From UHGV virus genome UHGV-0075672: a DNA stretch of 22,142 nucleotides; one strand, written 5' to 3'. The position numbers are program-made. This DNA is from a virus. Below are positions 3,001 through 6,000 of this stretch, one piece after another. Position 1 is the stretch's first letter. Each line of letters opens with the position of its first letter.

Positions 3001-6000
3001 GGCAAGTTGCAACAACTTCATCCCGTCCCCGTGACCACAGACACAAATCCATGAACCGGAACCATCCTTATCATCACAGCGAAATTTACCTCTGGCACCA
3101 CATATCGGGCAGGGGCCGCTATAATGTTTCAAGCCAGTAACAGGAGGCATGCCGTAATATTCAAAAATTCGCCCCCAATGCCCGGCCGCTGCCTTCTTAG
3201 TCTGCATGCTGGCCTCCTGTCATGGCTTTCTTGCGCCCTTTGGCATAGGCAATGGTCTTTGACTTGATGAAGTTGTACACTTCAACTGAGGTTTGCAGCG
3301 GCGCATTACTGAAGCCTTTAGGCCACACACCGAACTTCTCCTTGTAGGTATGAGCGCACCATCCGTCACTCAGGGGTTTACCCGTCGCGTTGCGGTAATT
3401 CTGATAACCCTTGATCTCACTCCACCAACGCTGTTTTTCCTCACGGGTGTATTCGCGTTTCCCTTTGTTGACGCGTGAAAGCTTACGATCGCGATCTGTC
3501 GCCACGTCATCACCACCAAGTGGGCGAAATCCACATTTGGGACACATGTGTACACCAGCAGGCTTCATGAAGTGGCATTTGGGGCATTCTCTGGGAAGTT
3601 TTTCAGCTTTAACCTCGCCACCGCCAGCAGACGCTTTCATTCCGTCATTTTTTCCCGGAAGTTCGTCATACTCGATATCCTCGGGGAAGCCCAGCCGATG
3701 AACCGTACCGGAATGGTCGAAAATCAATGCGCGTTTTTTACCAGACGCAGTACGTAACGCTCTCCCGATGCACTGCAACCAGCGGATTTCTGATTTGGTC
3801 GGACGGGCGTAGATCAGGCAGCGAACATCGCTGTCAAATCCCGCAACCAGTACGCCGACGTTGACAATTATTTTGGTCGCACCATCTTCAAAACGGCGAA
3901 TGATATCCTGCCGTTCATCATGGGGGGTATCTGCCGTCATCACCTCTGCGCCAATGCCAGACTGTAAAAACTCACGGGTAACAAAGTTCGCATGAGCCAC
4001 GTTCACGCAGAAGCAGATCGTCGGTAAATCCTCGCCATTCTCAAGCCAGTTGCTAACGATATCGCCAACCAGATCCGAACTCCCCATGATGGATGCGAGC
4101 TGTTCCTCGTTGTAATCCCGTCCAAATACGGTGTTACTGGTTTTTACGCCAGTCAGATCAGGCATTGAGGGGGCAAAAAACTCGTAATCGCTCAGATCAC
4201 CACGCTGAATAAGTTCACGAATCGTTGTAGGCTTGATCAGGCATTCGTAGTACTTCCCCATCCAGGCTGCGAATGGGGTGCCGGAAAGTCCAAGAACCCT
4301 GATGTCTCTGTCCCGGATAACCTCAAGTAACGCACGACGCTTCATGTGTGCTTCATCGATGATCAGCAGATCGATGTTGTCAGGAAACTCACGACGGATC
4401 AGCGTGTCGGCACTGGCAATCTGAATCAGTCGTGACGGGTCATAGTTAGGGTGATCACGCCATACAAAACTGATTTCTTCCCACGGTAAACCGTATTCGG
4501 TGAAACGTTCCGCTGTCTGGTTCAGCAGGATGGTGTACGGACAGACAAACATCACCCGCATACCACGTTCAACCATTCCGGCGGTGACGAATGCTGCAAG
4601 ACCAGTTTTGCCAGAGCCAGTGGGTGCGTACATCAAGTACGTGCGATGCTGTTTCCACTGGTGCCGCAGCTGGTTTAAACCGCGCTCCTGAGCAAAGTTT
4701 GGGATTATTTTCAGCATGACGCCCCCTTGCTACGTGATTTACCCGTTGCCGGGATCACGTCGATCTCATCGCTAACGTATTGATCCGGATTACGTGAACA
4801 GCGCAGAAGCACGATACCAGGAATGCCGTATAGCTTGAGTCTGCGCAGTTTCAGTATTGAACGTGCCCGTGGTGACGCTCTGTCCACCTCGATCGCGCAC
4901 CGTTCACCAGATGGGGCAACGACCATGATATCGACGAATCCGCGCTTACCGTTGCCCATATCAACCAGATAATTACGTTCGATCGCCAGTCCGGCATCAC
5001 GCAATTTGGCAGCCAGCACATAATCAAACGTGACCTTGTCTTTTCCGGTGTAGAATTTGTTTCCGAGCAGGCTGATAACCACATGTTTGATGAACATGGT
5101 ACTATTTCCACTGTGATAGTTAGCACAATAATAATTGTGCCAGAAACTATCGCGCCCTATACAGTGATCTACCTAACCTATGGAGCTGCCTTCCTCTGGT
5201 AGTGCCCTTACGGGCACGGATGTTACAGATCTGCCCCCTTACCCCCTTCTTAGTAAAATTTCAAGCCAAATAATTTCACATGAAATTATTTCACAAAAAA
5301 TAATCACCTTGATGAGGTCTATTCCTTCCGTATCGCTACTGGCGAAAGCATCCAGCCACGGCTGGCTCTCGCGTACTTCTGGACATACACCCGTAACCGG
5401 GTGTTGGCGCTCCGTCTTGCCCTGTTGCCCTTCCTGAACGATACAGGCTCCTTGTCCCACTCTTCCTGGTACACTCTCGCGTACTCTGCTGCAATTTTTA
5501 CCCTGGTGGTCGGGTCTAGCTGTAACAATTGCTCCTGTATCCAGTCCCGATCAGCATCGCTGTACTGATCGGGCATAACCGTTTTGATTTGCCTGTTCAC
5601 TCACACCTCCGGTGCGCTGTGTGTCCAGGATTAATCATCGCCTCTTACGAACGCAGGGAACGGACGAACCTCTTCCGCCTCAACTGTGCCGTCATCAAAG
5701 GTTTTGACGTATATTTCTCGTCCGACGAGAAGCGCTTTACTGATTGCACTCTGCGCCACGCCAAAGTCCTTAGCGGCTTTCTTCTGACCGAACCTGTATA
5801 CGTAATCAGCCAGGGTCTCTTTTTTCATCGCCATAACTGACTCCTTCAAAATGCCCATATCATTACGCACAGTTATTAAAATGTCAACACCGCAGATATT
5901 TCATTACATATAACCAAAGGTGATATGGTATGAACATGAAAAAGAAACCGTTAACCCCTGAGCAACTGGAAGACGCCAAGCGTCTGAAAAGTATTTTTAA

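Follow-up and report, generated by a model that had tools for sequence, protein, structure and literature searches.

UHGV virus genome UHGV-0075672 (22,142 nucleotides; the whole stretch is referred to here as the window) carries a lambda-like genetic switch in which the cI repressor gene diverges from cro. Downstream of cI lie a pair of restriction-modification (R-M) genes and, beyond them, a segment at 9286–9328 that is probably the left operator (oL) and the associated promoter pL of the immunity region. Nucleotide and protein identity mark the window as the early region of a Shiga toxin (Stx) prophage of the P13374/BAA2326 type, the O104:H4 outbreak family: positions 5325–9617 are 98.8% identical to P13374, an Stx2a phage from the O104:H4 outbreak of 2011, and to many relatives, and the cI and cro proteins are each 100% identical to their P13374 counterparts. 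An earlier note on this DNA had described a divergent cI/cro region, R-M genes and an R-M terminator. This context is confirmed, with cro on the minus strand and cI on the plus strand, a BsuBI/PstI-type methylase with its endonuclease, and a terminator at 9176–9197. The features of the locus, with the right operators (oR) given in the 17-bp registers proposed below, are as follows.

5631–5834, minus strand: cro (Pfam Cro, 3.3e-34; P13374 annotation); likely start at the ATG at 5834, with AAGGAG ahead of it
5859–5887, minus strand: pR, TTGACA-17-AATGAT, firing toward cro (promoter scan, 10/12)
5861–5877: OR1, AATAACTGTGCGTAATG on the minus strand; dyad ATAAC-N5-GTAAT, 8/8
5885–5901: OR2, CAACACCGCAGATATTT; one good half-site; overlaps the pR -35; centre 24 bp from that of OR1
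5909–5925: OR3, TATCACCTTTGGTTATA on the minus strand; dyad 8/8; overlaps the published OR3
5930–6643, plus strand: cI repressor, 237 aa (Pfam HTH_3 and Peptidase_S24; lambda-cI-like N-terminal domain)
6738–8207, plus strand: methyltransferase (Pfam; P13374 annotation)
8204–9157, plus strand: BsuBI/PstI-family endonuclease (Pfam; P13374 annotation)
9176–9197, plus strand: intrinsic terminator, its hairpin readable on both strands, closing the unit of cI and its downstream cargo genes (terminator scan)

The cro start annotated in P13374 corresponds to window position 5858. It falls within the pR -10 region, ahead of where transcription is expected to begin, and the ATG at 5834 seems the more plausible start codon.

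The repressor of BAA2326, an O104:H4 Stx2a phage (P13374 is of the same outbreak lineage), has been purified and footprinted on OR, and transcription from PR in this region is repressed by it (Chakraborty et al. 2018, PMC5977221); cooperative binding of CI at OR1 and OR2 has also been shown in the literature on this phage's OR. The published operator sequences are all found exactly in the window, OR1 (ATAACTGTGCGTAATG) at 5861–5876, OR2 (ATATCTGCGGTGTTGAC) at 5883–5899 and OR3 (CCTTTGGTTATATGTAAT) at 5903–5920, and the two ORs are the same element. The region 5835–5929 is thus identified as oR by its exact footprinted operators and the cognate cI. Within it we place three sites of 17 bp, spaced 24 bp from centre to centre, with half-sites of the form nATnACn. 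These proposed registers differ from the published boxes by offsets of 0 to 6 bp and are consistent with the published OR2- and OR3- mutations, the first of which alters the CAACACC half-site and the second A2 and T3 of the OR3 half-site (PMC5977221); re-registered in this way, OR2 and OR3 (5885–5901 and 5909–5925) make the operators look more symmetric than that study concluded.

A candidate left operator and promoter at 9286–9328

The earlier note had proposed a lambda-like oR/oL pair flanking the cI operon, with a block at 9709–9734 (block 2) as the left member and the R-M genes enclosed within the immunity region. The architecture is supported by our analysis, but the site appears to be wrong: the oL and pL of the immunity region probably lie at 9286–9328, about 400 bp upstream of block 2 and nearer to the R-M genes. 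With a probable oL/pL at that position, beyond the R-M genes, the placement of the R-M pair inside the immunity region is supported as well. We put the probability that block 2 is a chance resemblance, and that oL1, oL2 and pL at 9286–9328 form a lambda-style left end of the immunity region, at roughly 85%. The candidate elements are as follows.

9286–9302: proposed oL2, AACCACCAACGGTATTT, a putative site overlapping the pL -35; centre 24 bp from that of oL1
9300–9328, plus strand: proposed pL, TTTACA-17-TATATT, pointing rightward like cI and leading away from it
9310–9326: proposed oL1, AATCACCGCAAGTTATA, dyad ATCAC-N5-GTTAT, between the pL -35 and -10

The proposed pL is the sole strong plus-strand promoter match in 9100–9900 (10/12). 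The dyad ATnAC-N5-GTnAT is complete (8/8) at only three places in the 22 kb, OR1, OR3 and 9310–9326, where 0.27 would be expected; this dyad was formulated after the candidate had been seen, which counts against the result, and a matrix derived from phage lambda alone was run as a control. The matrix comprised the six lambda operators and was scored at 22,126 positions. It is a reasonable probe because the window cI keeps the lambda N-terminal arm and residues Q33, Q44, S45 and N55, as seen in an alignment of its N-terminal domain to lambda repressor structures (E 6e-29). With these residues of the lambda repressor–operator complex kept, ATCAC-like half-sites are expected. The matrix ranks oL1 (9310–9326) first and OR3 (5909–5925) second, with OR2 (5885–5901) tenth and the proposed oL2 (9286–9302) fifteenth, and for both OR2 and oL2 the distance to the stronger neighbouring site is exactly 24 bp. 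The proposed oL2 is identical to OR2 at 11 of 17 positions in the same register, and its core, A-CAC...CGG-ATTT, is kept across variants.

Several loci carry repressors whose S24 C-terminal domain is 97–99% identical to that of the window cI, joined to an unrelated N-terminal DNA-binding domain (L027/L050, with a C-terminal domain 99% identical, L047–L052, L056 and L057). These look like domain-swapped, heteroimmune repressors, in phages that have cargo and leader in common with this family.

Comparison of the two groups argues for an oL at the proposed position. The oL1 site is present in 23/23 contigs with the same DNA-binding domain, at a fixed distance from the leader sequence CAAGCCAGAAACATCG, and in none of the eight heteroimmune contigs, despite their common C-terminal domain and leader. 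The oL1 variants among the same-immunity contigs (AATAACCGCAAGTTATA and AATCACCAAAAGTTATA) differ only at 'n' or in the central positions, so that the dyad arms are preserved, and the pL promoter is kept in all of these loci. Heteroimmune contigs have a different promoter-like sequence at the same position (TTGACT or TTAACT, 17 nt, TTATAT), which in L027/L050 contains a dyad of its own, ATAAG-N5-CTTAT. What appears to us the strongest result for oL is the co-variation between L013 (same immunity) and L027 (heteroimmune): the two are 97–100% identical from the cI C-terminal domain through a HicAB cargo, and again in the leader, and across this common stretch they diverge in just two patches, one covering cro, oR and the cI N-terminal domain and the other about 130 bp that correspond to window positions ~9213–9345. 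The segment from ~9178 to ~9335, with the terminator and the pL patch, is always retained among same-immunity phages despite their differing cargo; the 9176–9197 terminator is conserved in all of them whatever the cargo, and homology among the different cargo types picks up again at ~9178. Counts in complete E. coli genomes agree: the segment with oR and the N-terminal domain is found in 133 genomes at 136 places, and so is the pL patch, the two sets being compared by number and not genome by genome, whereas the leader at 9400–9617 is more widespread (224 E. coli genomes).

A search of IMG/VR with the oL1 17-mer returned 25 loci, of which 19 have the pL context, five are chance occurrences and one lies in an unrelated phage, L024. 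There the identical 17-mer and -10 are combined with a -35 of consensus sequence, TTGACA, in a standard three-operator pL, whose other two operators are lambda-like and reproduce the 24- and 20-bp spacing of lambda oL. At 9286–9328 we find a dyad-symmetric 17-bp site that matches the cognate operators, a promoter match inverted relative to pR with a second site 24 bp away, and co-inheritance and co-variation with the DNA-binding domain.

Several observations weigh against this assignment. The proposed oL2 is weak (dyad 6/8), and we found no oL3, there being no dyad 20 or 24 bp upstream of oL2; the stretch at 9262–9285 is the most variable part of the pL patch among same-immunity phages. Raw similarity between the 17-mers of oR and the pL patch reaches 13/17, with P = 0.33, and best-17-mer tests (oR against the pL patch, against the block-2 region, and in cross-phage controls), which have low power, all gave P > 0.1. 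The absolute lambda-matrix score of oL1 is reached somewhere in 17% of random 22-kb sequences, and the case for oL therefore rests on position, promoter context and comparative genomics. Finally, the published study of BAA2326 reported "no readily identifiable OL or N gene" beyond the BsuBI R-M genes (PMC5977221), where we propose a candidate oL/pL, and a search of the literature for an OL in these phages turned up just two papers, both from the Koudelka laboratory and neither describing one.

The published negative and the weak raw similarity between oR and pL would also fit a phage without OL, in which 9286–9328 is a constitutive or otherwise regulated promoter associated with cI by linkage alone. 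We consider this improbable. Linkage leaves unexplained the joint replacement of the pL patch and the cro/oR/N-terminal-domain patch within a stretch that is otherwise 97–100% identical, natural variants keep the dyad arms, and the lambda-only matrix ranks the site as the best in 22 kb; moreover, stable lysogeny would be difficult to maintain if kil, gam and an antirepressor were expressed from an unrepressed early-left promoter.

The proposed arrangement, with oL1, oL2 and pL at 9286–9328, is like that of phage lambda in several respects. Both have a divergent pRM/pR switch with three operators about 24 bp apart, a related repressor N-terminal domain, and a pL that is oriented like cI and leads away from it; in this pL, O1 separates the -35 from the -10, and O2, at a distance of 24 bp, covers the -35. 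In both, non-essential cargo occupies the interval from cI to oL, rexAB in the case of lambda. The sequence ATCACCGCAAG is common to oL1 and lambda OR3. Unlike lambda, the window has half-sites that tolerate ATAAC, ATTAC and ATCAC, with weaker overall operator symmetry; no oL3 and no N gene are found, though the leader has an rrn-type boxA; and the cargo is a swappable R-M system, with about 3.4 kb between oL and oR. Phage 933W, an Stx phage, is said to be without an OL3 site (PMC5977221), and the window similarly shows just two recognisable left operators, although its repressor and operator sequences differ from those of 933W.

Block 2 and the insert that carries it

The two strings quoted in the earlier note as a repeated 25-bp block are both present in the window, each as 26 nt, at 5866–5891 (block 1) and 9709–9734 (block 2), the end coordinates given for them having been 1–2 nt short. 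Their status as a repeat did not hold. They share only three hexamers, CGCACA, GTTATT and CAACAC, in the same order (18 identical positions), and relative to block 1, block 2 has a 2-nt insertion after the first hexamer and a 3-nt deletion before the third; the alignment score is 18 under standard gap costs. With the same costs and the 95-bp oR as the query, 71% of random 685-bp targets of matched composition gave an equal or better match, as did 59% of control pieces taken from the window itself, and under lenient gap costs 97–100% of comparison targets match the 95-bp oR as well or better, which places the similarity at chance level. A repeat finder did not report the pair, although within 5 kb it listed 27 families of direct repeats with two copies and comparable quality. 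A motif search of the window with the block does return block 2 as the top non-self match of the 26-mer under lenient gap costs, but again at chance-level similarity.

Block 1 is real but already known, and it is not a unit. On the plus strand it consists of the right 11–12 bp of OR1, the spacer, and the left 7–9 bp of OR2, the last including the pR -35 on the opposite strand, so that it straddles the footprinted OR1 and OR2 and the pR -35.

Block 2 lies beyond the homology to P13374-type phages, which ends at 9617, about 90 bp short of it.

9618 to ~10417: rare insert of ~800 bp (3/5,426 complete E. coli genomes), taking the place of the P13374 ORF29 region
9843–10394, plus strand: open reading frame (ORF) of 183 aa within the insert, with a signal-peptide-like N-terminus; PHROG 19473 (function unknown), no Pfam match

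That block 2 is an oL operator/promoter block for this cI, homologous to OR1 and OR2, is hardly credible to us. Its three hexamers in the same order, its place as the top match of the 26-mer and its position downstream of the R-M terminator speak for it, and two further points run counter to our own assignment: block 2 holds one good half-site (GTTAT) together with CAACAC, and weak, non-specific affinity for the repressor is possible. However, besides the similarity being at chance level, the insertion and deletion throw the two dyad arms out of their 17-bp register, and block 2 has no counterpart of the OR1 left arm. An operator scan with the published OR1, OR2 and OR3, whose footprint boxes are mutually too dissimilar to serve as probes, found no ungapped match with three or fewer mismatches at block 2 or anywhere outside oR. 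In the window dyad scan block 2 scored under 7/8, and the lambda-only matrix places it at rank 37, with a score of 4.7 against 12.9.

The orientation is also wrong for an oL. In lambda-type phages oL and oR have to face in opposite orientations for transcription from pL to lead away from cI. Block 2 is a direct, not an inverted, copy of the pR side, and any promoter it formed would fire leftward into the R-M genes; a promoter scan gave no plus-strand promoter at block 2 and one weak minus-strand match at 9749–9720 (9/12).

The distribution of block 2 is likewise at odds with an operator of this immunity type. It is present in 3/5,426 complete E. coli genomes, and thus missing from 130 of the 133 that have the segment with oR and the DNA-binding domain. 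Among IMG/VR contigs it is found in one of the 23 with the same DNA-binding domain (missing from 22) and in one of the eight heteroimmune contigs, and it is base-for-base identical in L027/L050, which are heteroimmune and have a different oR. It lies about 375 nt downstream of the predicted pL start and about 375 bp outside the immunity boundary marked by the divergent patch. Operator matches in register, an inverted promoter and co-inheritance with the DNA-binding domain are all lacking at block 2, and the comparative data come near to refuting it as an oL. We therefore regard a role as operator of this cI as very unlikely; on these comparisons block 2 is a chance three-hexamer look-alike within a rare insert, with no operator function assigned to it. 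As a resemblance due to chance, the repeat proposed in the earlier note is without importance.

An alternative explanation is that block 2 is functional in a way unrelated to immunity, as a promoter or UP-like A/T tract for the ORF, as a leftward antisense promoter, or as an imported pR-like relic. It is located ~110–135 bp upstream of the ATG of the 183-aa ORF and travels with this ORF in the window, in L005, in L027 and in three E. coli genomes. In addition to the weak minus-strand match at 9749–9720, a plus-strand sequence TTCAAG-17-TATACT can be picked out by eye at ~9738–9766, and the minus strand of block 2 reads GTGTTGA...ATAAC...TGTGCG, which is pR-like. We consider a function of this kind unlikely, however, in that promoter-like matches occur in the region at the chance rate (two found, 1.3 expected), the plus-strand candidate fails the -35 criterion of the scan, and L002 carries the same ORF (97%) without block 2. 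The block-2 segment is also without relatives in the phage collection, a distant-mode blastn search giving no match to the non-coding part of the insert.

The cargo slot, the leader of the proposed pL and the predicted lysogenic state

The interval from the cI stop codon to the terminator (~6658–9178) is a variable cargo slot among phages of this family, with the following contents.

Window and P13374: R-M pair
L002/L004: R-M remnant, the endonuclease C-terminus alone
L010/L013/L027: 56-aa ORF and HicA/HicB toxin-antitoxin
L022: 341-aa unknown protein
L005: 300-aa ORF and HicAB

We found no promoter in the spacer between cI and the methylase gene, and co-transcription of cI and the cargo from pRM is therefore likely.

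The same spacer contains, at 6657–6697, a 15-bp inverted repeat (TTTGACATCCTTCAC / GTGGAGGATGTCAAA) with an 11-nt loop containing CTGCAG, the BsuBI/PstI recognition sequence. This is the sole copy of CTGCAG in the 22-kb window, where 5.6 would be expected, and the spacer RNA folds unusually well (z = -3.7, with 0/200 shuffles as stable). The hairpin was considered as a cI terminator and rejected, as it has no T-run. It may serve to control the R-M genes, either in a methylation-sensitive manner or at the level of RNA; L022, though without R-M genes, retains part of the repeat. A broader proposal, which we offer tentatively and hold to be somewhat doubtful, is that the slot is a dedicated, swappable cargo site, probably transcribed with cI in the lysogen, that its R-M version is perhaps self-controlled through the CTGCAG hairpin, and that looping between oL and oR across it is open to testing.

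On the other side of the proposed pL lies its leader.

9336–9617, plus strand: pL leader, common to heteroimmune phages
9408–9420, plus strand: perfect rrn-type boxA, TGCTCTTTAACAA, in the pL leader

No second, nutR-like copy of boxA was found in the window, the other match having two mismatches, consistent with chance. The leader also has a small hairpin, GCCCT-TACAC-AGGGC, at ~9352–9366, and its RNA fold is not unusual (z = -1.1). The phage family is reported to lack an N gene (PMC5977221), and a boxA leader in such a family raises the question of N-independent antitermination.

Rfam gave no match at oR, pL or the block-2 region. Matches above the gathering score elsewhere in the window are the sok antitoxin RNA (396–570, minus strand), sRNA-Xcc1 (10532–10620, plus strand, just upstream of the AntA antirepressor gene), isrK (19659–19736, plus strand) and the C4 antisense RNA (19762–19846, plus strand).

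We infer CI binding at oL, activity of pL, cooperativity, and looping between oL and oR over 3.4 kb from sequence and its comparison among phages. In the lysogen, CI dimers would occupy oL1 and oL2, probably cooperatively as at OR1 and OR2, and shut off pL. This would silence an early-left operon consisting of the boxA leader, the 183-aa ORF (in this window) and then the antirepressor, followed, by homology to P13374, by kil, gam, recT and exo. CI at OR1 and OR2 blocks pR, the step for which there is experimental demonstration (PMC5977221), and cI and the R-M cargo up to the 9176–9197 terminator would stay expressed.

The oR block was already known, and the candidate oL/pL adds, modestly, a new annotation for an element of well-known type. 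Its interest lies in the phage concerned: the switch of the O104:H4 2011 Stx2a phage has been studied biochemically at OR only, and a located oL1, oL2 and pL would make early-left repression testable. The proposed oL sets the left boundary of the immunity region, within which the R-M genes are likely lysogen-expressed cargo in a variable slot, positioned like lambda rexAB. Long-range cooperativity between oL and oR, which becomes testable with a located oL, bears on the level of repressor and on spontaneous induction of Stx phages. If an oL does lie 3.4 kb from oR, one could also test whether looping contributes to the 'hair-trigger' induction of the O104:H4 outbreak phage.

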